DNA of 64,000 bases from Treponematales bacterium (GCA_038248875.1 JBBRWY010000006.1:4094-68093), one strand, 5' to 3'; shown: positions 3,027-24,777, counted from the first letter of the stretch. Numbers and translations are program-made. Notes: a model not told the origin generated them from the sequence alone.

Positions 3027-4415
3027 ATGAAAAATTTATCGTCAAAAATGGCAATACCCCGTTCGGTGTATTATAGTTGTCTTATGAAAGTTCAGGGCTT
3101 GCTTGTTTTGGCTGCATCGGTTTTTTCGTTAGCGACAACCAGTATACTGTTTTTTTTCGCACAAACCGGATTTGGCTTGGCATTGGTAACCACCCTTGCT
3201 GCCTTTTTTACCGCTTCAGCTTCGCTGGTGCTCTATCTTCGGAGTGCACGTCCTCCTGAACCGAAGATTGCGGCGATTCCTCCCGTCAGGAGCTATGAGC
3301 TGCGTTTTTCGGAACTGATGGATGAGCTGCATTCCATTCTCGAAAAAACGCCTGAAAATATCCGAAAAATCATCGACTATCCCCTGTTTAACCGGATTTT
3401 AGCCGTCCGGACGACTGGTGAACTGGGGACCTTGATAATAGAAGCACACCGAAATCTCTTGAAAGCAGAAAAGATCATCTCGATTCTATCTGACAAAATC
3501 CTGACCGATAGCCAGGTTCTGCTTCCGCTTGCCGAGTCCATTATAAAGGCTGTTCCCCCGAAAACCGAAGAAGCCGCCTTCAATCTGATGGAGAAGTTTC
3601 TGGTTGTGCGCGAGGCTTCCGGCCGTGCTGCTACTTCTGCTCACATTCTACGAACCGATCTCGAAGATAGCAGCAGTGCAAAATCAATCATCTTTACGGC
3701 CGAAAACTCACGGAAGGCGGTGCATTCCGAGCGGGCTTCTATACGCGAACTGTCTGCCTGCACCCGCGAAAACAGCGAACACTTACAGGCAATGGGCAAG
3801 GAAATCGAGTCGGGTCTCGAGCTTCTAAAAAACATCACCGAAATAACTGAACGCTCCAAGCTTATCGCCTTCAATATGTCGATCGAAGCGGCCCGGATGG
3901 GCGAGAAGGGGCGCGGCGTCAAGGTTATTACCGCGGAGCTGCACAAGCTTAACGAGCGTACCTTCGGTTTTTCCCGGCAGGTTGCGGAACTGCTTGGCCG
4001 TTTCAGGGACTACAATACTATTCTGGTCAAGAATATTGAAGAGAAGGCCGGTGTTGTCGTGTCCGAGGTAGAGAAGGGGATTGATGCTTCGGAAGCGGCT
4101 GTTGAGTCTCTCATTTTCGCCTCAACCCGCACCGAAAATTTTACGAAGGAAATTGCACGGATGTCGGATGACATCAATCGAGGACTAGACGGCGTGCTCG
4201 AATCCCTGCAGTTCCAGGACATTACCCGCCAGATGATCGAAGGTGCACAGGGCATACTGGGCGAACTAAAGGCAAGCCTTGATCTGTCGCTGGGAGAGGA
4301 TATCAGGATCGACCAAAAAATTAAGCTTGAGCGGTTCAACGAAGTACGACAACGTCTGGTTGCTCACGCCAAAACAAAAGATGAAAAGACAGCAATGATG
4401 GGGGTACGATTATGA
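3027..4415 (+). CDS. Membrane-anchored MCP-like protein (divergent signalling hairpin) with a C-terminal FQDITRQ motif
   Basis: Two N-terminal hydrophobic helices (LLVLAASVFSLATTSILFFF, LALVTTLAAFFTASASLVLYL). MCP core LIAFNMSIEAARMGEKGRGVKVITAELHKLNERT. LQFQDITRQMIEG is encoded at 4212-4232. The stop overlaps the next ATG. Confidence 0.8.
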   Translation: MKNLSSKMAIPRSVYYSCLMKVQGLLVLAASVFSLATTSILFFFAQTGFGLALVTTLAAFFTASASLVLYLRSARPPEPKIAAIPPVRSYELRFSELMDELHSILEKTPENIRKIIDYPLFNRILAVRTTGELGTLIIEAHRNLLKAEKIISILSDKILTDSQVLLPLAESIIKAVPPKTEEAAFNLMEKFLVVREASGRAATSAHILRTDLEDSSSAKSIIFTAENSRKAVHSERASIRELSACTRENSEHLQAMGKEIESGLELLKNITEITERSKLIAFNMSIEAARMGEKGRGVKVITAELHKLNERTFGFSRQVAELLGRFRDYNTILVKNIEEKAGVVVSEVEKGIDASEAAVESLIFASTRTENFTKEIARMSDDINRGLDGVLESLQFQDITRQMIEGAQGILGELKASLDLSLGEDIRIDQKIKLERFNEVRQRLVAHAKTKDEKTAMMGVRL

Positions 4416-4765
4416 AAATTCTTTCCGTAGACGATTCTTCAACCATGAGGAAAATTATTTCTCTTGCATTGACCGGGGCCGGTCATACCGTAGAAGAGGC
4501 CGAAAACGGCCGTTTGGCTCTGGACAAACTGAAGAGCGGGTCGGTCGACTGCATCCTGCTCGACATAAATATGCCCGAAATGAACGGCATCGAATTTCTA
4601 AAAGCCCGAAAAACCGATCCGTCGATTTCCGGTATTCCCGTTTTTGTCTTGACCACACAGGACGAGGAATCCCTCAAAAAAGAGGCGCTGTCTCTCGGCG
4701 CGAAGGGATTCATCATCAAGCCATTCCAGAAAGAGGCGCTACTCGCGGCCCTCAAGAGCTTGTAG
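4412..4765 (+). CDS. CheY-like single-domain response regulator
   Basis: 117 aa with MKILSVDDSSTMRKI...ILLDINMPEMNG...FIIKPF. ATGA overlap with the upstream gene. Confidence 0.85.
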   Translation: MKILSVDDSSTMRKIISLALTGAGHTVEEAENGRLALDKLKSGSVDCILLDINMPEMNGIEFLKARKTDPSISGIPVFVLTTQDEESLKKEALSLGAKGFIIKPFQKEALLAALKSL

Positions 4766-4766
4766 A

Positions 4767-5111
4767 TTATACAAGGTTTTTATCGTTCCGGTGCCAGGCA
4801 AACAGGGTTTCGCTCTCCTCGAGGAAGCCCTGCTTGAACCAGAACTCGCGCGCAGTAAAACGCACGCGGTCGGCATACACAAGCGGGTACTGTGACTTGA
4901 AAAAGTCGATTACCGCGCTTGCGAAGCCGTTGTGTTCATATTCGGGGTATATCATTATGGAAAAAATAGTGATCTTGTCTGCTTCGATCCTGCATCGTGA
5001 TTTTCCCACCTGAACCGTATCGTTTTCGATATCAAACCAGTCATAGTCCCCAAGCTCTGCGCGCCGTTCCTGACGTATTAAATCGAGTTCCCTTCCAATA
5101 TGTTTTTTCAT
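4767..5111 (-). CDS. Small GNAT-like acetyltransferase (putative)
   Basis: Start trimmed to MKKHIGREL (ATG at 5109-5111), which forms an ATGA overlap with the upstream stop. IMIYPEYEHNGFASAVIDFF resembles GNAT motif A. The longer ORF-track start would overlap the deacetylase gene. Confidence 0.5.
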   Translation of the reverse strand: MKKHIGRELDLIRQERRAELGDYDWFDIENDTVQVGKSRCRIEADKITIFSIMIYPEYEHNGFASAVIDFFKSQYPLVYADRVRFTAREFWFKQGFLEESETLFAWHRNDKNLV

Positions 5112-5887
5112 CCGGCAAAACCCCGGCAAAATGCTGCCGTATTGGAGCCAAGGTCCTGTAAAAAGTAGCCTCCCTCGAGTACGGTAAACCGGCGGCCGTT
5201 GCAAACGCGGCGCGATGCCGCCCGTATCAGTTGGCCGAGTTTTTCGAAGTCCTCTGTTTCGAGGCGATGGCCAACATCCTGTATATAGAGGTCAAAACCC
5301 GCGGATACGGCGATAATATCGGTCTCTCCAATATCTGAAAGCCGCTGTTCTACCAGTTCGAGATAGCCTGATGCGCTGTCCGCGTATGGATTAAATATGG
5401 TCGCTTCTTTCCAGCTTCTCAGGATGTTTCGGGTGCCGTCACCCGTATGAGCGTCAATATCGATAACAAAGGCACGTGCGATTTTTTTTTCCTGTTTCAG
5501 GGTAAGAAGGGCAACGGCAAGATTATTGAAGGTGCAGTGGCCCCAAGCACTGTCGCGCGAGGCGTGATGTCCCGGCGGGCGAATGCAAGCGAAGGCCGGT
5601 TTTCCCTTTAGGGCGAGTTCCGCTGCGAGAATGGCTCCGCCTGCTGCAAGGCGTGCCATTGCAAACAATGCCGCGTTTTCCTGTATTGCTTCGATGTAGG
5701 TCTTATCATGCGCGAGGGAAATTTCCTCGATTGTCGCATTGCGTGCAGGAATTCTGTCGATGGTGCTTTCGCTCAGCTCCGATGTAGCGGCCTCCATTCT
5801 TCCGGGAAGGGAAGCATTGTTGTCGGCATACAATGAATTGGTAAAACGATCATCGTAAACAAGGATCAAGCCGTCAATTCTGCTCAT
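5108..5887 (-). CDS. Zn-dependent deacetylase of the histone deacetylase/AcuC/acetylpolyamine amidohydrolase family
   Basis: IRPPGHHASRD (His-His pair), IDIDAHTGDGT (Asp-His-Asp metal ligands) and VLEGGYF (catalytic Tyr) are all present. Confidence 0.8.
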   Translation of the reverse strand: MSRIDGLILVYDDRFTNSLYADNNASLPGRMEAATSELSESTIDRIPARNATIEEISLAHDKTYIEAIQENAALFAMARLAAGGAILAAELALKGKPAFACIRPPGHHASRDSAWGHCTFNNLAVALLTLKQEKKIARAFVIDIDAHTGDGTRNILRSWKEATIFNPYADSASGYLELVEQRLSDIGETDIIAVSAGFDLYIQDVGHRLETEDFEKLGQLIRAASRRVCNGRRFTVLEGGYFLQDLGSNTAAFCRGFAG

Positions 5888-6491
5888 GGGATCGGCTTAC
5901 ATGTTCGAGGCTGGTTTTGATGAAACCGGCCGCGTCGGTGGTGATGGGCGCACCGTGCCCGGGATAAATGGCACGGATGTTCAGGGAATCCAGACGTTCG
6001 AGGGATTGGCGGTATGCCTTTGTATAACTTCCCGAGTCATCCGAAATTCTGAACACGGTGTCTCCGGAGAAAAGAGTGCCTGAAATCGGGAGATAAATAC
6101 ACAGTGAATCGTCGGAATGACCGGGAGTATGCATAATAATTGCGTCTTCGTCTCCTACCATTATGTGCATGTTGTCAGTTGTGTTTTCGTATCTGCCGGG
6201 AATGCCTATCCATGAATAGAGAAGGGGATTGAATTGGTGCACGATTCCCTTGAGCCCGCCTGCGTGGTCGTAGTGTCCGTGGGTAAGGATTACCTGTTCG
6301 ATGGCCATCTTGCCGATTCCCTTTGACTGGCTTGCCATCTCCCGCATGAAATAACCGAGATTGGAAAGGTTTGTGGAGCCGGTGTCTATGAGTGTGTTTC
6401 GGTCTTTCGGTTCGTTTCGGTTGCCGAGAATCCAGTACACGGTGCAGGAGTAATCCGATTCGCTGTTCTGGTGCAGCGGGATGATGCGCAC
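5874..6491 (-). CDS. MBL-fold metallo-hydrolase
   Basis: LTHGHYDHAGG (HxHxDH) and a later HTPGHSDDS. GTG start. 14-nt overlap with the downstream gene. Confidence 0.8.
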   Translation of the reverse strand: MRIIPLHQNSESDYSCTVYWILGNRNEPKDRNTLIDTGSTNLSNLGYFMREMASQSKGIGKMAIEQVILTHGHYDHAGGLKGIVHQFNPLLYSWIGIPGRYENTTDNMHIMVGDEDAIIMHTPGHSDDSLCIYLPISGTLFSGDTVFRISDDSGSYTKAYRQSLERLDSLNIRAIYPGHGAPITTDAAGFIKTSLEHVSRSHEQN

Positions 6492-6493
6492 TT

Positions 6494-7108
6494 TCAGCCT
6501 TCTTCTTTCCGGAACAAAGGCTTGCCCGCCTCGGCGCGCACAAAACGACTGGCAAATTCGGCCGGCATAGCCTGGAATCCGTCAAGCACGAGAAAGCCGT
6601 TCGGCACAAGGGTATCGAAGAACATCTGGAGTACCTTCAGCTGATCTTCCGGAGTAAAATGCATCAGCACATTTTTACAGACGATCAGCGACTTATGATT
6701 TTCCGGCGCCTGAAAGGTCAAAAGGTCATGTTTCAGGTACCGCACTTTTTCTCGAATGTCCGGAGTGAGGCGAAAAGTATCCGGATCATCGGTGGCAATA
6801 AAATGCGTATTCCGAAATTTTTCGGGTACCCAGAATACGTCCTTCTTGCTGTACTTGGCTTTCTTTATGCGATTCTCGAACTGGGGGAAATTACTTTCCT
6901 CGAGATCTGTCGCGAGGATGTCCAGATTGCGGAAACTGAAGGGACCCAGGTGCTCGGCAAACACAATGGCCAGGGTAAACGGTTCTTCTCCCGAGGCACA
7001 TCCAGCATCCCATACACGAATTTCCTGCTGCTGGATCATCGCGGGCAGCGCTATCTTGACGATTGCTTCCAGAGCGTCGGGATCTCTGAAGAACGAGGTG
7101 TAGGCCAT
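6494..7108 (-). CDS. CheR-type SAM methyltransferase lacking the N-terminal helical domain
   Basis: Begins directly at the FFRD motif (MAYTSFFRDPDALEAI), followed by IRVWDAGCASGEEPFTLAIVF. The start overlaps the upstream stop by 1 nt. Confidence 0.75.
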   Translation of the reverse strand: MAYTSFFRDPDALEAIVKIALPAMIQQQEIRVWDAGCASGEEPFTLAIVFAEHLGPFSFRNLDILATDLEESNFPQFENRIKKAKYSKKDVFWVPEKFRNTHFIATDDPDTFRLTPDIREKVRYLKHDLLTFQAPENHKSLIVCKNVLMHFTPEDQLKVLQMFFDTLVPNGFLVLDGFQAMPAEFASRFVRAEAGKPLFRKEEG

Positions 7109-7569
7109 CAGTAACGGTAGCGGACGGAACTGAGCGTGATGTTCAGGGGTTCGTCTTCTGCGGTCATGAAGACCTTCGCCACGACGTTTCCTTGGGATTG
7201 TTTCTCAAAATATAGATACTGCGGAAGCTCCAGCTGAATTTCGGAACCCGTACCGAAATATGCCGACAGGAAGGCGCCGGCAATAATATTGAGCATTTCG
7301 AGAATCGAATCCTCGCCATTTTTTTTCTGGATGGAATCGGGTGAGTCTCCGTACAGATTTTCCACAATTTTGTTCCTGAGTCCCCCTGAAAGTCGCAGTT
7401 CGATACGGCAGGAAAAAGGAGCTAACACATCAATGGCCACACACCTTTCGTCTGTAACCGGAACACTTTCCGATTTCTGCACGTCGATGAATGCCATATC
7501 GGCGAAAACGGACGAGACACAGTCTGCAAGGAGTTCGGCAGCTTTTTCCGGATCAATATTATCGCTCAT
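7108..7569 (-). CDS. CheX-like CheY-P phosphatase (putative)
   Basis: 153 aa. DSILEMLNIIAGAFLS contains an ExxN (EMLN) in a context resembling the CheX/CheC active-site helix. Sits between cheY and cheR-like with overlapping stop/start codons. Confidence 0.6.
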   Translation of the reverse strand: MSDNIDPEKAAELLADCVSSVFADMAFIDVQKSESVPVTDERCVAIDVLAPFSCRIELRLSGGLRNKIVENLYGDSPDSIQKKNGEDSILEMLNIIAGAFLSAYFGTGSEIQLELPQYLYFEKQSQGNVVAKVFMTAEDEPLNITLSSVRYRY

Positions 7570-7943
7570 TGAGTACCTCCAAAAATGCGCATTATTTTTT
7601 CGGGAGAAACGGGTTTTTTTATGATGTCGGTAATCCCGAGTTTTTTCATTTCTATTTCTATTGAACCATCAGCAATGCTTGATGTGACGACAACCGGTAT
7701 GTGTGCGGTAACGCTTTTGTTTTTCAAAAGGCGGATGAAGGTTTGTCCATCCATCTTCGGCATATTGATATCGGTGAATATGAGGTCGATTGTGTTGTCG
7801 TCTATTATCGAAAGGCCATCGATCCCGTTCTCGGCATACAAGAATGCGTCAACCTCGATTCCGGTCATTTCGATGCACCGCTGGATAATCATACGGGAGG
7901 TTGGTGAATCATCGACGATCAAAACGTTTTTATAGTGTTGCAT
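7566..7943 (-). CDS. cheY: CheY response regulator
   Basis: 125 aa with VLIVDDSPTSRMI...DLIFTDINMPKMDG...IIKKPV. Confidence 0.85.
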   Translation of the reverse strand: MQHYKNVLIVDDSPTSRMIIQRCIEMTGIEVDAFLYAENGIDGLSIIDDNTIDLIFTDINMPKMDGQTFIRLLKNKSVTAHIPVVVTSSIADGSIEIEMKKLGITDIIKKPVSPEKIMRIFGGTQ

Positions 7944-7966
7944 TCTGTCTCTCCTTGGAACTGTGC

Positions 7967-8446
7967 CTAAATTTTCCAGTCTTTATTTCCGGAAGAAATG
8001 GTCGTTTCGCTTTCTCCGACCGTGATCGAAACCGTTCTACTTATTTCTCCACCGGTATCCTCGGCGACTGCACCGAGCGAGCTTTTCCAGAGGATACGCT
8101 TGGCGGCAAGAATATTCCGTTTTCCAATATCGAAGATCCCCTTGTCGTCCATAACCGAAGCGCCCCCAACCAGTTTAACCTGAATGTGTGCGCGTACAGA
8201 TCCTCGTCCTTTCATATCCTCAATCATTAAGGGCAACCCTCTATCTGCGAAATAGCCCGGGGTCTTTTTCCCTTTCTCGGGATCAATGGACGAGTCGGGG
8301 AGTGCGATATGGATCATGCCGGCAATACCAAGCTTGACATCAAAAATCATAACAGCGAGGCAAGATCCTAGAGCGTACGTTTTAATAACATCTCCCGGAT
8401 TTGAGGAAACAACCCATTCGCCGATTCCGACAACATGTACACTCAT
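7967..8446 (-). CDS. cheD: Chemoreceptor glutamine deamidase CheD
   Basis: YALGSCLAVMIFD...GMIHIALPDS. Size 159 aa. ATGA overlap with cheB. Confidence 0.85.
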   Translation of the reverse strand: MSVHVVGIGEWVVSSNPGDVIKTYALGSCLAVMIFDVKLGIAGMIHIALPDSSIDPEKGKKTPGYFADRGLPLMIEDMKGRGSVRAHIQVKLVGGASVMDDKGIFDIGKRNILAAKRILWKSSLGAVAEDTGGEISRTVSITVGESETTISSGNKDWKI

Positions 8447-9540
8447 GTTACTCTCCGTTTTTGTGGCGGGTCGCCAAGGCAGGACAGAATACTGCCGACT
8501 GCCATTTCAATAGGTATCAGTTTTTCCGCAGCACCATTTTGCCAGGCTTCTTTGGGCATACCGAAGACGACAGAACTTTCCTCATTCTGGGCAAAGCATC
8601 GTGCACCCGCGCGTCGCATTGCAAGAAGGCCGTCCGCCCCGTCCCGTCCCATTCCTGTCAGTATGAGTCCAATCCCTTTTTCCTTTGCAGCGGTCGCAAC
8701 GGATTGCAACAGGATGTCGACAGAAGGCCGATGTCCTGACACTTTGTCGCCTGGTTTGCATTCCACTCGCCACTCGAGTCCGTGCTTGTGTACCGTCATA
8801 TGAAAATCGCCGGGAGCGACGAGCACGAGGCCCTTGTGCACGAGGTCGCCGCTTTTTGCTTCCCGTACTTCAACATTTGAAACCTTGTTGAGCGCTTCCG
8901 CAAACAAGCGGGTAAACACCGGTGGCATGTGCTGCACGAGTACGACGCCAGGCATGTCGGCCGGGAATTGCGGGATGATGGTATTGAGTGCGGTGGTACC
9001 GCCGGTGGAGGCGCCGATCGCAATTATGCGGTTCTCGGTAGTGCTGGAAGTGTTTTCCTTTATGATGGTCTTTTTCTGGTCCGTAATCTTGCCCTGCAGT
9101 TCGCTTTGCGAGCGCCGCAGTTTGACGATGTCGGCTTTCGCGGCCCCTTTTATTTTTTCGGCTAGCTCGGCCAGCATTATACTTAATCCCGCGCGGTTGC
9201 TTGCTTCGGGCTTCGCAACGACTTCGACCGCGCCCGCATCAAGGGCGTCCATTGCACGTTTCGAGCCTTCGAGGGTAACCGCCGAAACAACCACGACGGG
9301 GACGGGATATTGGGGGAGGAGCCTCTTGAGAAATTCGATGCCGTCCATCCGGGGCATTTCGATATCGAGGGTGATGACGTCAGGTTTCAATAAGACGATT
9401 CGGTCGCGTGCCGAAAAAGCGTCGGATGCCTTTCCTACCACTTCAATTTCCGGATCCATGGACAGGCCTCGTTCCAGAAGGTCGCGCGCGATTGCGGAAT
9501 CATCAACGACCAACACCCGTATTTTTTGTTTTTGCGTCAT
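8443..9540 (-). CDS. cheB: Chemotaxis methylesterase/deamidase CheB (REC + esterase)
   Basis: Start trimmed to MTQKQKIRVLVVDDS (ATG at 9538-9540). Catalytic blocks IGASTGG, VQHMPPVFT, LTGMGRDG. Confidence 0.9.
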   Translation of the reverse strand: MTQKQKIRVLVVDDSAIARDLLERGLSMDPEIEVVGKASDAFSARDRIVLLKPDVITLDIEMPRMDGIEFLKRLLPQYPVPVVVVSAVTLEGSKRAMDALDAGAVEVVAKPEASNRAGLSIMLAELAEKIKGAAKADIVKLRRSQSELQGKITDQKKTIIKENTSSTTENRIIAIGASTGGTTALNTIIPQFPADMPGVVLVQHMPPVFTRLFAEALNKVSNVEVREAKSGDLVHKGLVLVAPGDFHMTVHKHGLEWRVECKPGDKVSGHRPSVDILLQSVATAAKEKGIGLILTGMGRDGADGLLAMRRAGARCFAQNEESSVVFGMPKEAWQNGAAEKLIPIEMAVGSILSCLGDPPQKRRVT

Positions 9541-10082
9541 TAATCGGCTCTCTGCAGTTTTTTGATGTCGCTGCCATCCTCGAGGAACATATACTCGTCT
9601 TCGAACCTGATTGATAGAGCGAGCCAACCGTTTGCCGGTGGCAGATCCTTGACCGCAGCGGGTTGCCCGTCAAGACTGGTGTACTGATATCCGAGCACCG
9701 GTAAAACGGCAAGGCCATCTCCCTTGAATTCCCAGGAAAGCGCGAGGTTCATCCGGTAATCATAGCTCGTCCGGCGATTTTCAAGAAGGAGGTCGCCGTA
9801 TATTATAACCCGCTTGACGCAGAGGTTTTGAGTAAATTCATAGGTCGCCTCGTAACATATATTTTCGGTTTCAATGCCCCGCAGGGTGGCGGCACAGAAT
9901 GCTTGTGCGTATGACTCACCATCAACGGTGTGCTCGACCACTTTCCATAATCCGGGTATGATCCGGGCTTTCGGCGCTAGAAAAGATGCAGAATATTCGT
10001 AGTTCCCGCTCTTGTTGGAGGACGCGAGAGACCCGGCAATGAGGTTCGTCATTTCTGTCAGTTTATTTTTTTTAATCGTCAT
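9540..10082 (-). CDS. Hypothetical protein, 180 aa, embedded in the che operon
   Basis: Uninterrupted ORF with an ATGA overlap to the parA-like gene upstream and a 1-nt overlap with cheB downstream. I recognised no motif. Confidence 0.6.
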   Translation of the reverse strand: MTIKKNKLTEMTNLIAGSLASSNKSGNYEYSASFLAPKARIIPGLWKVVEHTVDGESYAQAFCAATLRGIETENICYEATYEFTQNLCVKRVIIYGDLLLENRRTSYDYRMNLALSWEFKGDGLAVLPVLGYQYTSLDGQPAAVKDLPPANGWLALSIRFEDEYMFLEDGSDIKKLQRAD

Positions 10083-10864
10083 AGCGTTTCCAAAAATCCT
10101 TTTTCTATCACTCGTTTATAGTCGCGGGCGGCAAAGCTAGAAGGTCCGCATTCCCAAATCGTGCGGGACTTTTCGAGCGAACGGGTCATGTATTCCGATT
10201 TGCCGATTTCGAAAATGGGAATATGAAAGGACGAAAAAACCTCCCGGTATGTCTTGACCCGGTTCAGCCGATTTTCGGCCTTGGTAAATATAAGCGAGTG
10301 TATCTTGATCGGCTTGCCTGTTTCTTCCGAACAAATCCGAACTTCGTCCAGTATTGATTCCAGTCCCGAAACGGAAAAAAGCTGGAATTCCAGGGGAATA
10401 ATGACCGCATCGCTCGAGCGGATCAGAAGGCGTTCAAGCGGGCTATTGGAAGGGGAGGAGTCGATCAGGATCCAGTCGTACTTTTCGCGCACAGCTTCGA
10501 TGAAAGAGGGGAAGAGTGCGTATGTTTTGACGATGTCCGTATCATGCAGTTCGAGTTTTAGTTTTTTGTTATTCGCCGGAACGAGATCGAGATTCCTGCG
10601 CACATTGCGATGGATAAAATCGGCTGGTTTACATGGCTTTCCGGCAAGGAGCGCGTTCAGGAGATCCCCAAAATTCTGTGTATCTTTGGCCCCAAAAAAA
10701 AGTGAGAGGTTCCCTTGCGGATCTCCGTCGATGACTAAAACCTTTTCACCTTTTTTCGCGAGGCCCGACGCTATTTGAATGACCGATGAGGTTTTTCCTA
10801 CGCCGCCTTTCTGGTTGGCGACCGTCACGACCTTGAGTCCATTTTGGCGGAGACTTATCGACAT
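10079..10864 (-). CDS. ParA/MinD-family ATPase (chemotaxis-cluster associated)
   Basis: Deviant Walker A VANQKGGVGKTS, then VLVIDGDPQGN and ILIDSSPS. Confidence 0.85.
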   Translation of the reverse strand: MSISLRQNGLKVVTVANQKGGVGKTSSVIQIASGLAKKGEKVLVIDGDPQGNLSLFFGAKDTQNFGDLLNALLAGKPCKPADFIHRNVRRNLDLVPANNKKLKLELHDTDIVKTYALFPSFIEAVREKYDWILIDSSPSNSPLERLLIRSSDAVIIPLEFQLFSVSGLESILDEVRICSEETGKPIKIHSLIFTKAENRLNRVKTYREVFSSFHIPIFEIGKSEYMTRSLEKSRTIWECGPSSFAARDYKRVIEKGFLETL

Positions 10865-10870
10865 TTTGTA

Positions 10871-11725
10871 TTATTCTCCCTTTCGATATACTGCCGGTTT
10901 TACATACGAAAATGGACAGTCTTCCCTTCGCAAGGATTCTGAATGTCCGATAAAAAAATACCCGCCCGGCTTAACATACTGGAACAGCGTCTGGACAACT
11001 TTCCTGCGCGATTCCTGATCAAAGTATATCATTACATTGCGGCAAAAAATAGCATCAAATTGTCCTTTCATCGGAAACGTTTCGGCCATTAGGTTCAGTC
11101 TCTTAAAGAGAACCATTTTCTTGATCTCTTCACTTATGGTCATTGTATCATCCGTTTTTTTTCTGAAATACGCATTTTTATAGGCAGCGGGCAGTTCCCG
11201 CAACTTTGTTTCGCTGTAATCACCCCGTTCCGCCTCCTGGAGCGCGGAAAGGGAAATGTCCGAGGCAAGAAGGCCGTAATCGAGCATATCAAGCCGGTTC
11301 CCGTAGTATTCGCGCAACAGCATTCCAATCGAATAGACCTCTTCTCCGGTTGCGCAACCCGCGCTCCATATCCGCAAGGGGTATCGCGCCGACAATTTTA
11401 TTTTGTCCTCTATTCCCGGAAGGATTGTCTTGACGAGAAAATCGAAATGCTCGCGTTCGCGGAAAAAGAATGAATGGTTCGTCGTGATCCGGTTAATCAG
11501 TTCGCTCAGTTCAACGCCCGATTTGTCTGCGGCTAGATAGTCAAAATACGGGGTGAAAGCGCTGAACCCAAGCTGCCGGATGCGCTTCGAAAGGCGACCG
11601 GCAACCAGGATTCGTTTTTGCTCGCTCAAGTAAATACCGAACCGGTCATATAGCATTCCTGCTATGTACTTAAATTCGGTATCACTTAAGGGAACCAGAT
11701 CATTATTCAGTTCCATCATTCTCAA
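10871..11725 (-). CDS. cheR: Chemotaxis methyltransferase CheR (full length)
   Basis: FFREREHFDFL and IWSAGCATGEEVYSIGMLL, with the N-terminal CheR helical domain present. Confidence 0.9.
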   Translation of the reverse strand: MRMMELNNDLVPLSDTEFKYIAGMLYDRFGIYLSEQKRILVAGRLSKRIRQLGFSAFTPYFDYLAADKSGVELSELINRITTNHSFFFREREHFDFLVKTILPGIEDKIKLSARYPLRIWSAGCATGEEVYSIGMLLREYYGNRLDMLDYGLLASDISLSALQEAERGDYSETKLRELPAAYKNAYFRKKTDDTMTISEEIKKMVLFKRLNLMAETFPMKGQFDAIFCRNVMIYFDQESRRKVVQTLFQYVKPGGYFFIGHSESLRREDCPFSYVKPAVYRKGE

Positions 11726-12246
11726 ACCGCCAGGGAAACACCGGACAGATTTTCATCGCGCACGATTTTCTCTACATCGATCAGGATTTTGATGGCTTCT
11801 CCAACTTTACCCATACCGGAAATATACTGATCTTTGCCAGATATAGTCTTGAACTTGGGCGGAGGCTCGATGTTCTTTTCGAGTATCTCCATCACTTCTT
11901 CAACCGTGTCCACGAGGCAGCCGACCAGAATATGGTCGACTTCGGTTATTATGATACAGGTGCGGTTATCGTACGCTCGTTCGGCCATGTCGAAGCGAAG
12001 GCGTAAATCGACGATGGGGATGACCTTTCCACGGAGGTTGATCACCCCTTTTACGTAGTTTGGCAGATCAGGCACCATCGAGATGGTCTGCAGTTCGATA
12101 ATTTCGATCACATATCTGATGCCCACTCCGTAAGACTCTTTTCCTATTTTGAAGAAAAGGTATTTGTTCGCCTGAGTATCTTCGTTGTCATCGTCATCAG
12201 TCAGGAGTTCGTCCTGTGCTTCAGCTTTTCTGTTGTTCTCGGACAT
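11722..12246 (-). CDS. cheW: CheW coupling protein
   Basis: 174 aa with YLFFKIGKESYGVGIRYVIEII...VINLRGKVIPIVDLR. Confidence 0.9.
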   Translation of the reverse strand: MSENNRKAEAQDELLTDDDDNEDTQANKYLFFKIGKESYGVGIRYVIEIIELQTISMVPDLPNYVKGVINLRGKVIPIVDLRLRFDMAERAYDNRTCIIITEVDHILVGCLVDTVEEVMEILEKNIEPPPKFKTISGKDQYISGMGKVGEAIKILIDVEKIVRDENLSGVSLAV

Positions 12247-12260
12247 ACTTCCTCCTTTTT

Positions 12261-15128
12261 TTAGAACTTGCCGAAATTATTGTCGTCGAGCGAAATAATG
12301 TCGGCAGGATTGACCTTGGACGGTTTTGATCGAGTTACTGCTGCGTTTTGCATTTTAGCTGCAGATGCCATCGTTGGTGCTGATTGCCGGTGGGAATTGT
12401 CTCGATTGGCCAGTTCTGTACGGAGCATGGCCATGACGTCCGCATTGTTCATCTTTCCTTCCTGCGCCTTCAGTTTGAAACGGCCGAGCATAGACTTGAC
12501 CTGTTGTGCCTGAGATGACAGTTCTTCGGATGCCGAGGCGCTTTCTTCCGCGCTTGCCGTATTGCTCTGTGTTACCTGGTCGATCTGGTTGAGACCGAGG
12601 GAAATCTGTTCGAGGCCTTGCGTCTGTTCGCGTCCGGCCGTTGCCACTTCTTCGGCAAGGACTACTACCTGTGATGCGCCATCAACAATTTCGCTCAGTT
12701 GTTTTGCCGTACCATCCACGAGGACGTTACCGCGCTGGATGTTACTGATCGCTTCATCTACCATGATCGTCGTTTCTTTAACCGAACTTGCGCTGCGGAC
12801 AGCGAGGTTGCGAACTTCTTCGGCGACGACCGCGAAGCCTTTTCCGTACTTACCGGCTCGGGCTGCTTCGACGTTTGCATTGAGTGCAAGGAGGTTGATC
12901 TGGAAGGCGATGTCATCGATCGCGATGACGACTTTCTTGATTCCCTCTGCGCTGGCATTAATGTCCTTCATTGCGGAAACGAGTTCGTTCATCTGGATAT
13001 TACCCTTTTGAGCATTATCCTGTGCACCCTTGGCAAGGGTGTTCACCTTGAGAGCGTTTTCCGTATTGGTACGGGTCTGGCTCGAAATCTCGGTAGTGGA
13101 AGACGTAATTTCTTCGAGCGAAGCCGCCTGTTCGGTAGCTCCCTGCGAAAGAGCCTGGCTTGCTTGCGATACCTGCAGCGAACCTTCTGCTACCTGATCA
13201 ACCGCCGTGGTGATTTCGCCGAGGGTGTTGTTGATTGATTCGAGCGAATCGTTCATTGAGGTCTTGAGAATGTCGAAATCTCCCTTATACACACCATTCA
13301 TGCGCAGCGTCATGTCGCCTTCGGCAAGTCGGGTAAGGATAGCAATTGTTTCGTTAACCGGTGTGATGACGAGGTCGAGTGTCTTATTAACACCGTCGAC
13401 GATCTTCTTATAATCCCCCTGATGCTTCGTAGCATCGGCACGGGTCGAAAGCTTTCCGTCGATAGCTGCTTCGACAAGTATACTTGCATCGCTGACGAGT
13501 GCGTTGATCGCGACAATACAAGCGTTGAGGTTCGTTTTGATAATATTGTATTGCCCTTTGTACACCGAGGTAATCTGTTCGGGAATCGCTCCACGAGAAA
13601 TCTTGTCAACATAGTCGGCTGTTACCATCAACGGATTGACGATGTTGGTGATGGTTTCGTTGACGCCTTTGACCAGCTGATTCCATCCGCCGAGGAATAT
13701 GTCGGCGTTGGCACGTTTGTCCAGATCTCCGTCCGCTGCAGCCCTGATGATGACATCTGTTTCACGGAGGAGGTCACTCATCATTTTGACGACAGAATTG
13801 AGGTTGTTCTTGATGATGTTGAAGTCGCCATTGTAGGAATCGGTGATAACCGGCGGAATGACACCCTTACTGATATCATCAACATATTTCGCGGTGACGT
13901 TGAGTGGTCCGATGACTGCATCAAGTGTTTTGTTGACGCCATCCACGATCTTGCGGTAGTCGCCCTGGTGCTTGGTGGCGTCTGCGCGGGTCGAGAGTTT
14001 GCCGTCGACAGCTGCCTGCACGAGTAAGCCTGCGTCCACGACGAGCGCATTGATGTTGTCTATTGCCAGATTCAGGTTGTTCTTGATTTCGTTGAAGTCA
14101 CCGTTGTATGAATCCGTGATCTTCGGCGGGAGGTCGCCTTTCGAAATACGGTCAACATAGTTCGCTGCAACATTGAGCGGTCCGATAACGGCATCGAGTG
14201 TCTTGTTGACGCCTTCGACGATCGAATGGTAGCCGCCTTTGAACTTCGAAGCATCTCCGCGGGTGGACAGCCTTCCGTCCACGGCAGCCTTGGTGAGCAT
14301 CTCTGCTTCGCCGATCAGCGCTCCGACAGTCGCGATGACGCCATTGAGGGAGGTTGCAACCTGCATGAACTCATCTTTCGATTTGACTTCCATTTTTTCT
14401 GAAATATCGCCTGCGGCAAGTTTGTCAAGAATAGCGACAGATTTTTTGAGCGGATTAGCAATCGATGTGCCCAGAATAATTCCGAGGATGAGGGCAACAA
14501 TGAATGCAAGTATGGTCACAATGATAAGAATGACTTTACCCGTATTCGCGCTCTGTATTGCCTGTTTGGGCAGGTCGATTCCATAATATTGCTGGTCATA
14601 GGTAAGAACTTTTCTCACCGCGTTTTGAACGTTGTCGAAGACGAGTCGTTCATCGCCGGAAATAAGTGCATATATTTCCCGGAAATATGCTTCACGTTCC
14701 TCCGGTCCCGCGTTTTTCGCTTTTGTCGCGAGTTCCATTATTGTATTATTGTAGGCAGCCGCTGGCCCAATCAGGGCGGTAACTTCTTTCCAGAGTTTGG
14801 CCTCTTCGGGGACATTGGGAATAGCCTCGAATTTCTCGAGCGCTGCCTTGTAGGAGGTCCGCGCTTTTTCTATATTGGCCAACTGCCGCTTGTATGTTGC
14901 CTCGTCATCAATAGTCAGGGGATTAGAGAGCGTACGTATGGCTACTTTCAGATTGGTCAGTTCCAGATCGATAGAACTCAGGGCATTGAGAGAAGGGATG
15001 GTCTCTTCCGCTAAGGCAACTAGGTTTTTATCAAGGCTGCTTATCTGCATAATTCCCACTACACCAACGATGCCGCATAATACTGCTACGGCGATGAAAC
15101 CGGTAAGCAACTTGGCCAATATTTTCAT
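12261..15128 (-). CDS. Transmembrane methyl-accepting chemotaxis protein with a poly-HAMP array
   Basis: Two TM helices flank a ~170-aa extracytoplasmic domain. These are followed by four ~91-aa repeat units and then the signalling core [47 protein letters not shown] lies upstream of the ATG. Confidence 0.9.
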   Translation of the reverse strand: MKILAKLLTGFIAVAVLCGIVGVVGIMQISSLDKNLVALAEETIPSLNALSSIDLELTNLKVAIRTLSNPLTIDDEATYKRQLANIEKARTSYKAALEKFEAIPNVPEEAKLWKEVTALIGPAAAYNNTIMELATKAKNAGPEEREAYFREIYALISGDERLVFDNVQNAVRKVLTYDQQYYGIDLPKQAIQSANTGKVILIIVTILAFIVALILGIILGTSIANPLKKSVAILDKLAAGDISEKMEVKSKDEFMQVATSLNGVIATVGALIGEAEMLTKAAVDGRLSTRGDASKFKGGYHSIVEGVNKTLDAVIGPLNVAANYVDRISKGDLPPKITDSYNGDFNEIKNNLNLAIDNINALVVDAGLLVQAAVDGKLSTRADATKHQGDYRKIVDGVNKTLDAVIGPLNVTAKYVDDISKGVIPPVITDSYNGDFNIIKNNLNSVVKMMSDLLRETDVIIRAAADGDLDKRANADIFLGGWNQLVKGVNETITNIVNPLMVTADYVDKISRGAIPEQITSVYKGQYNIIKTNLNACIVAINALVSDASILVEAAIDGKLSTRADATKHQGDYKKIVDGVNKTLDLVITPVNETIAILTRLAEGDMTLRMNGVYKGDFDILKTSMNDSLESINNTLGEITTAVDQVAEGSLQVSQASQALSQGATEQAASLEEITSSTTEISSQTRTNTENALKVNTLAKGAQDNAQKGNIQMNELVSAMKDINASAEGIKKVVIAIDDIAFQINLLALNANVEAARAGKYGKGFAVVAEEVRNLAVRSASSVKETTIMVDEAISNIQRGNVLVDGTAKQLSEIVDGASQVVVLAEEVATAGREQTQGLEQISLGLNQIDQVTQSNTASAEESASASEELSSQAQQVKSMLGRFKLKAQEGKMNNADVMAMLRTELANRDNSHRQSAPTMASAAKMQNAAVTRSKPSKVNPADIISLDDNNFGKF
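13209..14288 (-). repeat. Intragenic tandem repeat, 4 x ~273 nt (91 aa), encoding the poly-HAMP units of the MCP
   Basis: Units start at residues 281 (AAVDGRLSTRGDASKFKGGY), 372 (AAVDGKLSTRADATKHQGDY), 463 (AAADGDLDKRANADIFLGGW) and 554 (AAIDGKLSTRADATKHQGDY). Each contains GVNKTLD...YNGDF..IK.NLN. Confidence 0.85.
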
Positions 15129-15204
15129 TTATATCCTCCTAAAAAGTGAGACAGTCCTTTGAACTATCTCGATAACCCGTAATTGATATAGTAACCTGTA
15201 CGGA

Positions 15205-17457
15205 TTACTCGAGACGCATTGATAATAATTTTCCCGTATCTATGATAAAACTGACGCCGCCGTCGCCGAGAATGCTGCAACCGGATATGCCTTCGACCTT
15301 GCCGAGATACTCGGAAAGGGATTTGACGACTATCTGCTGGTTGCCGATGACCTCGTCGATCAGGATGCAGGCCTTGCGGCCGTTGTTCTGTACCACAATG
15401 ACGATGCCCTTGCTGGGATCGGTCACTGCGCCGGGAATCTTGAAGACCTCGGCGAGCTTTATCAGAGGTAAAAACCCGGACCGGATGTTTATGGTTTGCT
15501 CGCCCTTTTCGGTCTGCGTGACTTGTGCCGGCGTTACCTTGAAGAATTCGAAAATGTCATTGAGCGGAATGGAGTAACGGTTTTTGCCTGCTCGCACGGT
15601 AATGCCGTCGATAATGGCCATCGTAAGCGGGATGGTAAGAATGAACTCGGTGCCCTGACCGACTTCGGTTTTTATTTCGACTTTCCCCCGGATTCGTTCG
15701 AGGTTTTTTTTAACAACGTCGAGACCGACCCCGCGACCAGAAACTTCTGATACTACGTCTGCAGTTGAAAAACCTGGCTCGAAAATGAAGGCATAGGCAT
15801 CCTTGTCCGAAATGGTCGCCGGATCCTGTTTCAGAATCCCGTTTTTAGCAGCTTTCGCGAGAATTTTATCTCGATTGAGCCCCGCGCCGTCATCCTTGAT
15901 ACTGATCCAGATCTCCGAGCCTTCATACCGCGCATCGAGGTGAACCGTACCTGTTTCCGGTTTACCTGTTGCTTTCCGTACTTCTCTCGACTCGATTCCG
16001 TGATCGATAGAATTGCGCAGAATATGGACCAGTGGATCTGATATTTGCTCGATAACATTCTTGTCCATTTCGGTGTCCTGGCCCGAAACGATGAAGTTGA
16101 TCGGTCGGTCGAATTTGCGGGAAAGATCGCGCACGAGGCGGGTCATCTTCTGGAACAGACCGTCGAGCGGAATCATGCGGATCATCATGGTCGTTTCCTG
16201 GATTTCGCGACTGATCTTGTTAAGACTTGCGAACGACTTTGCAAAGCTGTCCAGTTTGAGACCAGTCAGATCGGCGTTGTTGATGACCATAGATTCTGCG
16301 GTAATCAATTCGCCGACCAGTTCGAATAATTTGTCGAGCTTGGAGGTGTCCACGCGGATTTCCTTGCGGACAACTTCCTTGCTTGTTTCCTGCTCCGGAC
16401 TCGGTCCTTGCGCTTTCTGGATTTTAAGGGCTTCGTTCAGGTCCTCGCGGGCGACCGATCCTTTCTGGACGAGGATTTCGCCGAGCGGGCGCTCCTGTTC
16501 GTCGAGGGCGTCCTGGATCGTTTCGTCTTTGATGACGCCCATGTCCACCAGAATTTCTCCGAGCGGACGATAGGGTGTCGGAGGTTCGGTTGACGTAACA
16601 GCCGGAGGCACGAAGGGCAGGTCAAGCGGGTCGGTATCCGCTTGTGTGATCGAATCGTTTCCAGCTTCCTGGATAACAAGCGTATTGAGACTCATCCGTA
16701 TACGATCTATGGTATGAATTATTGTATTGATGAATGGCTCACCCACCGGCGTCGGGCTTTTGCGTGCAGTGTCCAGCACTGTTTCGAGGTTCATACACAG
16801 GGCTTCAAGGAAAGAATATCCGAAGAACCCCGAGTTGCCTTTTATAGTATGAATCGCCCGAAACATGTCGTGAACCGCATCTGTACTCACTGCCTTGGGA
16901 TTGATCTCGAGTGCTATTTTTTCGGTACGATCGACGAGGTCGGCACATTCGCCAATAAAGCGTTGTACCATATCGCGGGTAACGAGGTCACTGAGGAACA
17001 GTTCGTTGGGAATGGCGGGTACGGCTGATTCTTTCGGTTTGTTACCATCCCGTAATGATTTGATCATCGCGGTTACAATAGAAGTCTGTTTTGCAACTTC
17101 TTCAGCGCCGCTTTCATCGGTATATTCTTTTTCCACAATACCGATCAGCTTGCGCAGAATGTCAACGGTTGCATACACCACATCAAGGGCATCGGCAGTG
17201 ACCGGCACTTTTTCCTTGAGAAAGACGTCAAGCATCGTTTCGGCTTCATGGGTCAATTTTTTGATATTTTCAAATCCCAGATAGCCGGCCGATCCCTTTA
17301 CTGAATGAAAAAGGCGGAAAACCGAATTTAATTGTGCAGTGTTGTCGCCATCTCCCAGACGGGATAATTGTGTTTCCGAATCGTCAAGACGTTCATACCC
17401 TTCTGCAACGAAGGAAAGAAGAATCTCGCGAGTTTCATCATCGATGCTTTTGGGCAT
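15205..17457 (-). CDS. cheA: Chemotaxis histidine kinase CheA (two HPt domains, no recognisable P2)
   Basis: Start trimmed to MPKSIDDETREILL (ATG at 17455-17457). HPt boxes FHSVKGSAGYLGF and IHTIKGNSGFFGY. N-box DPLVHILRNSIDHGIE, G1 IKDDGAGL, G2 SGRGVGLDVV. C-terminal CheW-like domain. Confidence 0.9.
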   Translation of the reverse strand: MPKSIDDETREILLSFVAEGYERLDDSETQLSRLGDGDNTAQLNSVFRLFHSVKGSAGYLGFENIKKLTHEAETMLDVFLKEKVPVTADALDVVYATVDILRKLIGIVEKEYTDESGAEEVAKQTSIVTAMIKSLRDGNKPKESAVPAIPNELFLSDLVTRDMVQRFIGECADLVDRTEKIALEINPKAVSTDAVHDMFRAIHTIKGNSGFFGYSFLEALCMNLETVLDTARKSPTPVGEPFINTIIHTIDRIRMSLNTLVIQEAGNDSITQADTDPLDLPFVPPAVTSTEPPTPYRPLGEILVDMGVIKDETIQDALDEQERPLGEILVQKGSVAREDLNEALKIQKAQGPSPEQETSKEVVRKEIRVDTSKLDKLFELVGELITAESMVINNADLTGLKLDSFAKSFASLNKISREIQETTMMIRMIPLDGLFQKMTRLVRDLSRKFDRPINFIVSGQDTEMDKNVIEQISDPLVHILRNSIDHGIESREVRKATGKPETGTVHLDARYEGSEIWISIKDDGAGLNRDKILAKAAKNGILKQDPATISDKDAYAFIFEPGFSTADVVSEVSGRGVGLDVVKKNLERIRGKVEIKTEVGQGTEFILTIPLTMAIIDGITVRAGKNRYSIPLNDIFEFFKVTPAQVTQTEKGEQTINIRSGFLPLIKLAEVFKIPGAVTDPSKGIVIVVQNNGRKACILIDEVIGNQQIVVKSLSEYLGKVEGISGCSILGDGGVSFIIDTGKLLSMRLE

Positions 17458-17536
17458 ACCTTTTTTCGCTCCCGATAGTTTATTTAAGTGTAGTTGACAC
17501 TTAAAAAAAAACAAGGGGTAAAAAAATAATTTTTGT

Positions 17537-18580
17537 TTATGCTTTAATAGCCCAACGGAGGCGTGCTGAACGGGCGCGCGGATTCGCGTATTTTTCGGCA
17601 GCCGTCGGGAAAATCGCCGTTTCGGAAACGGAACTGTAGAGGCCTGCTTCGAATCCTGCCATGAAGGATCCGGTGACGCGGCGATCTTCACCCGAATGGA
17701 AAGTGAGGATAGCGATGCGCCCTCCTTTTTTCATGCACAGGGGAATTTGGGCGAGCAGGGTATCGAGCGCCGAAAATTCTCCATTTACTTCAATCCGGAT
17801 AGCCTGGAAGGTGCGCCTGATTGTTTTTGTAATATCATCTTCGCTTTGGTGCAGGGGAGCGATGGCCGCCGTGACGGCTTCGGCAAGATCCCGGGTGGTG
17901 AGAATTTTTCCGCGGCGCTGGCAACAGACACGGGCAATGGCGGGTGCCTCTTTTTCGTCGGAATTGTCCCGGAGCAGGGCGGCTAGTTTTTTTTCGGGGA
18001 TACGTTCAAGGAGGAGAGCAGCAGAAGCTCCCTTGGACGGATTCATCCTCATATCGAGTGGGCCGTTTCGTTTAAAGGTAAACCCTCGCTCGGGATTGTC
18101 AATCTGCATCGATGACACCCCGAGATCGGCGAGAGCGAGGTCGAAGCCGCCGGGAACGTCAATGGTGAGCAGTTTGGGAAGTCCCGCAAAATTGATATGG
18201 CGGGTGCTGAAATTGTCTTCGGTAAAGCCTTCAGCTCGAAGGCGGGATTCGGTTTTAACGATTTCTATCGGGTCTGCATCAAGGCCCCAGAGCTTACCCC
18301 CGGGCAGGATGGTCTTGAGTATTTCCCGCGAGTGGCCGCCGTAACCAAGGGTGCAGTCAACTGCGATTTCGCCGGGCTGTGGCGCAAGAAATTCGAGGAT
18401 TTCCTGTACACAGATGGGGCGGTGGCTGCCGGCCGGGGTGTCTCCGCGGGCAATCACTTTCTCGATATCCTCGCGGTAGGAATCGGGATTGTGTTCCTTG
18501 TATTTTTCCGAGAAGGTATGGGGATGGGTTCCTTTGTAACGTACGCGTCGTTTGTGTGGTTCGACCGGCTCTTCATTCAT
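17537..18580 (-). CDS. rsmH: 16S rRNA (cytosine1402-N4)-methyltransferase RsmH/MraW
   Basis: DCTLGYGGHS, DLGVSSMQID, ILTFHSGEDRRV. Confidence 0.85.
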   Translation of the reverse strand: MNEEPVEPHKRRVRYKGTHPHTFSEKYKEHNPDSYREDIEKVIARGDTPAGSHRPICVQEILEFLAPQPGEIAVDCTLGYGGHSREILKTILPGGKLWGLDADPIEIVKTESRLRAEGFTEDNFSTRHINFAGLPKLLTIDVPGGFDLALADLGVSSMQIDNPERGFTFKRNGPLDMRMNPSKGASAALLLERIPEKKLAALLRDNSDEKEAPAIARVCCQRRGKILTTRDLAEAVTAAIAPLHQSEDDITKTIRRTFQAIRIEVNGEFSALDTLLAQIPLCMKKGGRIAILTFHSGEDRRVTGSFMAGFEAGLYSSVSETAIFPTAAEKYANPRARSARLRWAIKA

Positions 18581-18650
18581 GAGGATGAGTATTGCATATT
18601 GGTGCGGAATGTGTAATCGCTTTTGGCGATGAATAGGTGTCTGTTTTCGC

Positions 18651-22669: not shown

Positions 22670-22686
22670 CTAATGGAGCTGAATGC

Positions 22687-23055
22687 ATGAAAAAGGTACT
22701 AGTTGTCGATGACTCTGCCATAGGCCGCGAGATTGTAACCCGGGTGCTTGGTGCGAAGTACGAAGTGATTAAAGCCGCTAGCGGTGAGGAAGCACTCCGT
22801 AAAATCGCCGAAACTTCGCCTGATTTGGTGATTCTCGATCTTCTCATGCCCGAGATGGATGGTTTTGCCGTGCTTTCACGTCTGAAAGAAACCGGAAATT
22901 GTGTGCCGGTGTTTGTTCTCTCTGCGGATATTCAGAAATCGACGCGAAGCAGGGTTATCGAATTGGGAGCCGTGGATCTGATCAACAAGCCGGTCGACCC
23001 CGAAACGCTCCGTTCCAGTGTGATGAACATTCTGGGTACCCAAAGGGAAGACTAG
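22687..23055 (+). CDS. CheY-like response regulator
   Basis: VLVVDDSAIGREI...LVILDLLMPEMDG...LINKPV. Confidence 0.85.
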   Translation: MKKVLVVDDSAIGREIVTRVLGAKYEVIKAASGEEALRKIAETSPDLVILDLLMPEMDGFAVLSRLKETGNCVPVFVLSADIQKSTRSRVIELGAVDLINKPVDPETLRSSVMNILGTQRED

Positions 23056-23057
23056 AT

Positions 23058-23663: not shown

Positions 23664-23666
23664 CAC

Positions 23667-24725: not shown

Positions 24726-24777
24726 GAAGTGTTTTTATGGTGCAGTCAAGCTGATTTTCGCGTATACTAGGTGGACT

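Follow-up and report, generated by a model that had tools for sequence, protein, structure and literature searches.

The DNA analyzed here is a 64,000-nt stretch from a Treponematales bacterium (GCA_038248875.1 JBBRWY010000006.1:4094-68093), referred to below as the window, and open reading frame (ORF) calls reveal one long chemosensory operon on its minus strand. Directly after cheY and cheX, this operon runs on into four genes for putative enzymes, which we call CheRc, MBL, HDACl, and GNATl. The original prediction had read them as the translationally coupled tail of the chemotaxis (che) operon and as a possible acetylation and methylation layer acting on CheY, CheA, or the receptors. All four lie on the minus strand:

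4767-5111, minus strand: GNATl, a 114-aa mini-GNAT, called as an ORF that shares an ATGA overlap with HDACl
5108-5887, minus strand: HDACl, a 259-aa compact Zn-dependent HDAC-fold deacetylase-like enzyme (PF00850)
5874-6491, minus strand: MBL, 205 aa with a GTG start, a glyoxalase-II/LACTB2-like metallo-beta-lactamase-fold hydrolase (PF00753)
6494-7108, minus strand: CheRc, 204 aa, the catalytic S-adenosylmethionine (SAM)-binding domain of CheR alone (PF01739)

The continuity with cheY and cheX on the same strand, as well as the junctions that had been claimed, were borne out by the ORF calls. cheY and cheX overlap by ATGA, cheX and the CheRc gene share a single base (TGATG at 7108), CheRc and MBL are separated by 2 nt (6492-6493), MBL and HDACl overlap by 14 nt (5874-5887) when the ATG at 5887 is taken as the HDACl start, and HDACl and GNATl again overlap by ATGA (5108-5111). 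An alternative HDACl start, the TTG at 5869, would leave a 4-nt gap to MBL and matches the N-terminus of most homologs. The junctions among the four genes are too tight to accommodate promoter or terminator sites. A consensus scan of positions 4300-18800 returned 13 promoter-like sites where 13.6 were expected and 20 terminator-like sites where 18.8 were expected; an internal promoter or terminator splitting the tail from cheX, which had been named as an observation that would count against a single operon, did not emerge above shuffled expectation in this weak test, which addresses sigma-70-type promoters and intrinsic terminators only. Judged by this layout, the four genes are co-transcribed and translationally coupled.

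HDACl is readily recognized by Pfam as a member of Hist_deacetyl (PF00850; E = 1.8e-40, 139.6 bits versus a cut-off of 27.9). In an alignment with HDAC6, its HH dyad and its DxDxH, GFD, and EGGY motifs coincide with GHHA, DxDxH, GFD, and EGGY, and residues H107, H108, D143, D145, H147, D199, and Y241 are invariant among 22 sequences. The AlphaFold2 model has a mean predicted local distance difference test score (pLDDT) of 93.6, and Foldseek matches it to HDAC6, HDAC10, HDAC4, and HDAH with query-normalized TM-scores of 0.81-0.86; the target-normalized scores are about 0.6, with some 60% of those structures covered. HDACl falls below the size of a full HDAC catalytic domain, which exceeds 300 aa and includes the substrate-tunnel loops: in a pairwise alignment it is about 70 residues short of HDAC6, and the solved HDAC-fold chains that match it best are all longer, by roughly 45-100 residues. 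The small size is shared by its relatives, since the 3500 homologs are mostly 252-253 aa long and define a compact family of about 252-259 aa.

CheRc had been described as a truncated CheR, a description that does not survive comparison with its homologs. It matches PF01739 (E = 2.2e-33) over profile positions 3-180 of 195 and aligns to residues 69-232 of Bacillus subtilis CheR and to the CheR structures 5ftw, 5xly, and 1af7; the N-terminal all-alpha receptor-helix domain CheR_N (PF03705) was not detected by Pfam, and the ORF is not extendable upstream. Among the best 120 of its 278 homologs, most are 204 aa long and all have PF01739 and lack CheR_N. In 34 aligned sequences from GTDB loci of many phyla, the N-terminus MAxTxFFRD is conserved and the SAM motifs WDAGCAxGxEP, ATD, and CKNVLxH are at least 95% conserved. 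The conserved length of about 204 aa and the conserved start thus define a family in its own right, and they rule out a decayed CheR pseudogene. CheRc is also distinct from canonical CheR by score, reaching 52 bits with the NCBIfam CheR equivalog versus a cut-off of 435, and plasmid-borne genes match it only at the level of canonical CheR, with at most 37% identity.

MBL matches Lactamase_B (PF00753, E = 4.4e-26), and the ligands H71, H73, D75, H76, H125, D144, and H179 of its five metal motifs are at least 95% conserved among 38 sequences. Its nearest solved relatives are LACTB2, TTHA1623, and glyoxalase II. It scores below every NCBIfam equivalog cut-off, including that for glyoxalase II (TIGR03413; 52 bits versus 200.8), and is not a glyoxalase II by this measure. 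The active-site motifs quoted in the original prediction are therefore all present, and they are either invariant or at least 95% conserved across homologs.

GNATl is only weakly recognized by Pfam (Acetyltransf_7, 17 bits versus a cut-off of 27). Its earlier description as GNAT-like nevertheless holds, because the AlphaFold2 model (pLDDT 93) shows a GNAT core without the N-terminal α1-α2 arm, because the best PDB matches found by Foldseek are all GNATs (probability 1.00, query-normalized TM-scores 0.5-0.69), and because many of its 61 homologs of about 108-116 aa pass PF13508. The structural matches include the regulatory GNAT PanZ (4crz/4cry) and the acetyl-CoA-binding GNAT domain of ICL2. 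The region of acetyl-CoA motif A reads PEYEHNGFA. The reference motif for binding the CoA pyrophosphate is Q/R-x-x-G-x-G/A; at this site, GNATl of the window carries E-H-N-G-F-A and its relatives carry Q-R-R-G-F-A or E-G-x-G-Y-A, with G62 and A64 invariant. The family is small, comprising 72 clusters at 50% identity among 1.84e9 representative proteins at E <= 1e-10, and no GNATl match was found on plasmids.

A search with the GNATl profile uncovered, in other organisms, fusions of this domain to each of the other three enzyme types: CheRc::GNATl in P0354, P0355, and P0341, MBL::GNATl in P0369, and full-size HDAC::GNATl in P0399 and P0448. Proteins longer than 1000 aa and tandem GNATs, which the profile matched more weakly, reflect generic or repeat similarity and were set aside. 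We regard the fusions as the best indication that the four enzymes cooperate, and their recurrence with different enzymes suggests a partner or regulatory role for GNATl. A long HDAC ORF in locus L009, considered as a further fusion, proved to be merely a high-GC ORF extension.

The conservation of the gene set was assessed by using the HDACl alignment to collect 80 loci from species-representative GTDB genomes, the ORFs of which were searched with all proteins of the window operon. CheRc, MBL, and HDACl, usually followed by GNATl, occur in the same order in 32 of the 80 loci, and in a 33rd (L037) CheRc-MBL lies on the opposite strand in an adjoining che operon. In nearly all loci, GNATl comes after HDACl. 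When the count is restricted to loci whose upstream flank spans at least 3 kb, core che genes lie in or beside 21 of 25 four-gene loci, versus 2 of 24 loci with the HDACl-GNATl pair only (Fisher p = 7e-8); the loci are not phylogenetically independent, because many of them are from Holophagaceae. The co-occurrence with che clusters elsewhere that the original prediction had called for is thus present, and it extends over Spirochaetota, Holophagaceae, Leptospirales, Latescibacterota, Sedimentisphaerales (Planctomycetota), Desulfobacterales, and Methanosarcinales.

The position of the module within these clusters varies. It follows cheX at the 3' end of the operon in the window and in L001, where the cheX-CheRc order of the window is repeated; it lies divergently between cheW and cheR in L017 and L031, between a methyl-accepting chemotaxis protein (MCP) gene and cheB with all genes co-directional in L018/L084 (a 5.7-Mb Holophagaceae contig), between an MCP gene and cheR in L060, and after cheA-cheW in L050. 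The internal spacing is tight in all lineages, with typically 3 nt between CheRc and MBL, typically -4 to +18 nt between MBL and HDACl, and -4 to +18 nt between HDACl and GNATl. In a neighbor-joining tree, module-type HDACl proteins form three coherent clades, one of which mixes bacteria with Methanosarcinales, which argues that the module moved horizontally as a unit. From this pattern of gene order and neighborhood, the four genes emerge as a conserved accessory module that accompanies che clusters in many bacterial phyla and some archaea.

In the clade in which Methanosarcinales group with a Desulfobacteraceae metagenome-assembled genome (L043), a fifth conserved gene of about 208 aa is located between CheRc and MBL (L039:2059-2685, L043:8707-9339, L045:7312-7938, L056:2157-2783, and L061:817-1437). 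Its product carries the class-I methyltransferase motif EIGCGLA and weakly matches PrmA and Methyltransf_25. Two archaeal loci also encode an acylphosphatase domain to which a long repeat rich in Gly, Met, Glu, and Arg is fused (GGMREEM and similar; L045:10199-11026 and L039:4589-5398, both on the minus strand), about 200-560 nt downstream of GNATl and on the opposite strand to it.

Inspection of partial gene sets shows that the module is composed of two separable pairs, CheRc-MBL and HDACl-GNATl. Distant CheRc homologs with 51-52% identity stand beside MBL inside che clusters without HDACl or GNATl, and CheRc-MBL was seen in che clusters only. Around the HDACl-GNATl pairs that occur alone, the 76 nearest ORFs of 22 loci include nine response regulators, seven PAS domains, and six kinases, a modest enrichment, and no metabolic genes recur among them; on a Methanomicrobiales contig, the pair sits between a PAS kinase and response regulators. 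In a further case (contig carrying P0297; L085:1358-2928), CheRc-MBL ends a CheW-CheB-CheR operon, which is followed by a convergent gene for a receiver-SpoIIE phosphatase and a HATPase_c_2 gene resembling an anti-sigma kinase. This arrangement suggests that the che pathway in question feeds a partner-switching output.

The remainder of the window operon, given here from its 3' to its 5' end, comprises canonical chemotaxis genes and two further genes between cheR and cheB, all on the minus strand:

7108-7569, minus strand: CheX-like phosphatase (PF13690, 28.3 bits versus a cut-off of 27), translationally coupled to CheRc
7566-7943, minus strand: CheY-type single-domain response regulator (PF00072, E = 3.1e-23)
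7967-8446, minus strand: CheD receptor deamidase (PF03975, E = 3.4e-25; the NCBIfam CheD models match below their cut-offs)
8443-9627, minus strand: CheB methylesterase with REC and CheB_methylest domains (Pfam), the likely start being the ATG at 9540
9540-10082, minus strand: 180-aa protein without a Pfam match, inside the che operon
10079-10864, minus strand: ParA/MinD-like ATPase (Pfam), inside the che operon
10871-11725, minus strand: canonical full-length CheR with CheR_N and CheR domains (Pfam)
11722-12246, minus strand: CheW (Pfam)
12261-15128, minus strand: 955-aa chemoreceptor with a 4HB sensor, a HAMP domain, five HAMP_2 units, and an MCP signaling domain (Pfam)
15205-17691, minus strand: CheA with Hpt, dimerization, HATPase, and CheW-like domains (Pfam)

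Since a full-length CheR is encoded in the same operon, CheRc would be an extra methyltransferase rather than a replacement. The ParA/MinD-like ATPase and the 180-aa protein between cheR and cheB are both retained, in the corresponding position, in L017 of Spirochaetota and may have a role in array positioning. At the 5' end, the ORF of the rsmH (MraW) methylase (17537-18580, minus strand) overlaps the predicted cheA ORF by about 155 nt; because of this overlap, the GTG start of cheA at 17691 is probably too far upstream.

Several further signaling genes flank the operon. The stop codon of GNATl on the minus strand (4767) and that of a convergent response-regulator gene on the plus strand (4765) are 1 nt apart, so that an intrinsic terminator has no room on either strand at 4765-4767; the same convergent response regulator is found in the Spirochaetales locus L001. 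It is the second gene of a convergent two-gene unit (3027-4765, plus strand), encodes a 117-aa receiver-domain protein, and overlaps by its start codon the stop codon of the first gene, whose product is a membrane protein of 462 aa containing a weak MCP signaling domain (E = 1.8e-14). Just past this unit, an 804-aa hybrid sensor with the order receiver-PAS-PocR-PAS-HisKA_2-HATPase is encoded at 488-2902 on the minus strand. A second signaling block (21182-28080, plus strand) comprises a 4HB MCP, a 254-aa CheC/CheX-like protein, a PAS-HisKA_2 kinase, and a 1100-aa protein with 7TMR-DISM, histidine kinase, receiver, and adenylate/guanylate cyclase domains.

The gene that accompanies the module most constantly encodes a receptor bearing a HAMP_2 array (poly-HAMP), and it adjoins the module in at least 17 loci. 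In L066, the poly-HAMP receptor is directly upstream of the HDACl-GNATl pair, and in the locus of P0369, with the gene order CheW, CheRc, MBL::GNATl, poly-HAMP MCP, it adjoins the fusion gene; L086 shows only a weak HAMP_2 trace, in a truncated receptor beside CheRc-MBL. The window receptor belongs to the same type, as its HAMP_2 array has a repeat period of 91 aa, with about 35% of residues identical when the sequence is shifted against itself by 91 or 182 positions. C-terminal pentapeptides of receptors tether CheR and CheB. The window receptor ends in NFGKF, and other receptors linked to the module end in GQWESF, GQWEAF, FFKDF, or DFRDF, all of which resemble such tails. The poly-HAMP neighbors together with the pentapeptide-like tails suggest the receptor complex, rather than CheY, as a putative target. 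Of the targets named in the original prediction, the receptors are thus favored by gene neighborhood, in the form of poly-HAMP receptors, whereas CheY is not the most constant partner, and the window chemoreceptor becomes a candidate target of the module.

These observations suggest an explanation for the four genes, to which we assign a probability of about one half: they would form a conserved, horizontally mobile accessory layer of covalent modification in chemosensory pathways built around poly-HAMP receptors. The signaling complex would then undergo an extra reversible covalent modification besides that by the canonical CheR, CheB, and CheD of the same operon. GNATl would bind acetyl-CoA and acetylate lysines in the receptor or in a Che protein associated with it, and HDACl would take the acetyl groups off, the two forming a writer/eraser pair resembling AcuA and AcuC. 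CheRc, which retains the SAM site and lacks the N-terminal domain that recognizes receptor helices, would methylate a non-canonical site, and MBL would reverse this mark or hydrolyze a related ester or thioester. In sum, the module would tune receptor or kinase output to acetyl-CoA and SAM status. As a functional association with the chemosensory pathway, the dedicated layer of the original prediction is well supported by the recurrence of the four-gene order and of the che linkage; its dedication to chemotaxis does not extend to HDACl-GNATl, which is not che-specific.

A more elaborate version can be put forward only tentatively, and we consider it rather doubtful as a whole. It describes a second adaptation or input system on the poly-HAMP arrays of many uncultured bacteria and of some archaea, combining acetylation and deacetylation of lysines in the receptor complex by a mini-GNAT and a minimal HDAC with non-canonical methylation and demethylation by CheRc and an MBL esterase, in which GNATl would be an acetyl-CoA-gated hub that recruits or gates all three enzymes.

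Several points weigh against such a modification layer. The HDACl-GNATl pair is mostly found away from che genes, with none in 22 of the 24 pair-only loci that have sufficient flank. Canonical CheR, CheB, and CheD are already encoded in the operon, and the need for a second system is not obvious. The nearest solved relatives of HDACl include the polyamine deacetylases HDAC10 and APAH, and those of MBL are thioesterases, glyoxalase II, and an RNase, none of which is a known protein methylesterase. GNATl lacks the α1-α2 arm and has an invariant Trp (FWxKxGF) at the position that the general-acid Tyr occupies in many GNATs; it may be able to bind acetyl-CoA but not to transfer acetyl. Finally, a writer joined to its own eraser, as in the HDAC::GNATl fusions P0399 and P0448, is unusual.

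GNATl could alternatively be a non-catalytic acetyl-CoA sensor or adaptor subunit, which would dock on or regulate HDACl, CheRc, and MBL in the manner of PanZ and PanD. The module would then report acetyl-CoA status, and HDACl would remove acetyl groups added non-enzymatically or by other enzymes. The fusions to each of the three other enzyme types, the very small size without a substrate-binding arm, the apparent retention of a CoA-binding motif A with Trp in place of the usual Tyr, and the tiny family of 72 clusters would all suit a sensor, and PanZ (4crz/4cry) and the ICL2 GNAT domain have the highest target-normalized TM-scores of all matches (0.58-0.61). However, the top Foldseek matches are the bona fide acetyltransferases YlbP, RimI, NatD, and HP0935, and many GNATs function without the Tyr. 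We regard this reading as unlikely.

The module might instead have a small-molecule substrate, in line with the metabolic role that the original prediction had allowed for. One candidate is an amine or an amino-acid derivative undergoing N-acetylation, deacetylation, and O-methylation; another is a thioester of CoA (an acyl-CoA) or of glutathione, cleaved by MBL. An intracellular ligand or metabolite linked to the receptor would thereby be made or destroyed. This would be in keeping with the relationship of HDACl to HDAC10 and APAH, with the glyoxalase-II/PqsE-like nature of MBL and its kinship to thioesterases, with the varied non-che contexts of HDACl-GNATl, and with the additional small class-I methyltransferase-like gene of some lineages. 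Yet no transporter, biosynthetic, or catabolic genes recur beside the module or the pair, the neighbors that do recur being MCP, CheW, CheA, CheB, and CheR genes or kinases and response regulators; enzymes of the CheR family are known to methylate glutamates of proteins; and pairing an acetylase with a deacetylase on a single metabolite would amount to a futile cycle. We consider chemistry on a small molecule unlikely.

An unrelated housekeeping, toxin-antitoxin, or defense cassette that happens to lie at the end of the che operon is highly improbable: the HDACl-GNATl pair does occur in many contexts and a GNAT toxin, AtaT, is among the weaker structural matches of GNATl (rank 35), but the che linkage recurs in at least seven phylum-level lineages with rearranged gene orders, CheRc-MBL is embedded in che clusters even without HDACl-GNATl, the gene upstream of GNATl is HDACl instead of an RHH/DUF1778 antitoxin, and GNATl has no plasmid match. 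In PADLOC, GNATl and HDACl had no match, and MBL and CheRc matched generic folds only weakly, at about 16-25 bits.

Comparison with known systems places the proposed covalent-modification layer next to several precedents. AcuA and AcuC are much larger than GNATl (114 aa) and HDACl (259 aa). The AcuA (GNAT)/AcuC (HDAC) operon of Bacillus acts on the acetyl-CoA synthetase AcsA (PMC13121692), and it shares with the module the presence in one operon of a GNAT and an HDAC-fold enzyme beside genes for presumed targets, as well as a reversible writer/eraser logic. Unlike in that system, the neighbors of the module are che genes and CheRc and MBL are attached to it, and neither AcuB nor acsA is present in the window or in the annotated loci L081, L082, and L084. 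With the CheR/CheB(/CheD) system, CheRc has in common the SAM catalytic domain of CheR with its motifs and a place in che operons beside receptors, some of them pentapeptide-tailed; it differs in lacking PF03705 and in having MBL rather than CheB as its constant partner, with canonical CheR, CheB, and CheD encoded separately.

Lysine acetylation has been tied to chemotaxis proteins before. In E. coli, Acs or acetyl-CoA serves as the acetyl donor for CheY, and CobB is a sirtuin. The acetylation of E. coli CheY and its deacetylation by CobB are described in PMC2883070, and in Azorhizobium caulinodans CheA, CheB, CheR, CheY1, and an MCP are acetylated, with deletion of the Zn-deacetylase AZC_0414 altering chemotaxis (PMC9927263). 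In the available parts of these two reports (PMC2883070, PMC9927263), the enzymes are not described as che-operon genes, whereas the module appears dedicated, operon-encoded, and receptor-associated. PanZ, which serves PanD as an acetyl-CoA-dependent regulatory subunit, resembles GNATl in being a small GNAT fold of similar size, as reflected in the structural matches to 4crz/4cry, but beyond the fold the two sequences are unrelated, PanD is absent, and the module supplies other partners. CheR-TPR fusions, which belong to pathways with alternative cellular functions, are likewise CheR variants whose domain architecture is indicative of one kind of chemosensory pathway (PMC3447774); these gain a TPR domain, whereas CheRc is without the N-terminal domain and is sometimes fused to a mini-GNAT.

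We found no description of an HDAC, a GNAT, an MBL, or a CheR without its N-terminal domain as a component of che clusters in the full-text literature searched, a corpus outside of which most subscription journals fall. A 2024 survey of bacterial classical deacylases does not mention chemotaxis, and a comparative study of Geobacter che clusters describes no such genes. The component superfamilies and covalent modification of signaling proteins are known, while their association with che clusters is apparently undescribed.

In the textbook account, chemotaxis adaptation consists of receptor methylation by CheR and CheB and deamidation by CheD, and to our knowledge the only effect of acetylation previously seen in chemotaxis is a diffuse and non-dedicated one on CheY. 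Individual parts of the module may be of interest in their own right, namely the short HDACl, the GNATl of about 110 aa as a possible hub, the CheR without a receptor-recognition domain, and MBL as a possible new eraser. A dedicated four-enzyme module retained in che clusters of different phyla and domains would mean that additional layers of covalent modification are possible in chemosensory pathways, and it makes the module a concrete, testable candidate for an input of acetyl-CoA or SAM status to signaling. If the second adaptation system with GNATl as its hub were true, chemosensory output would be wired directly to the central-metabolic state of the cell.

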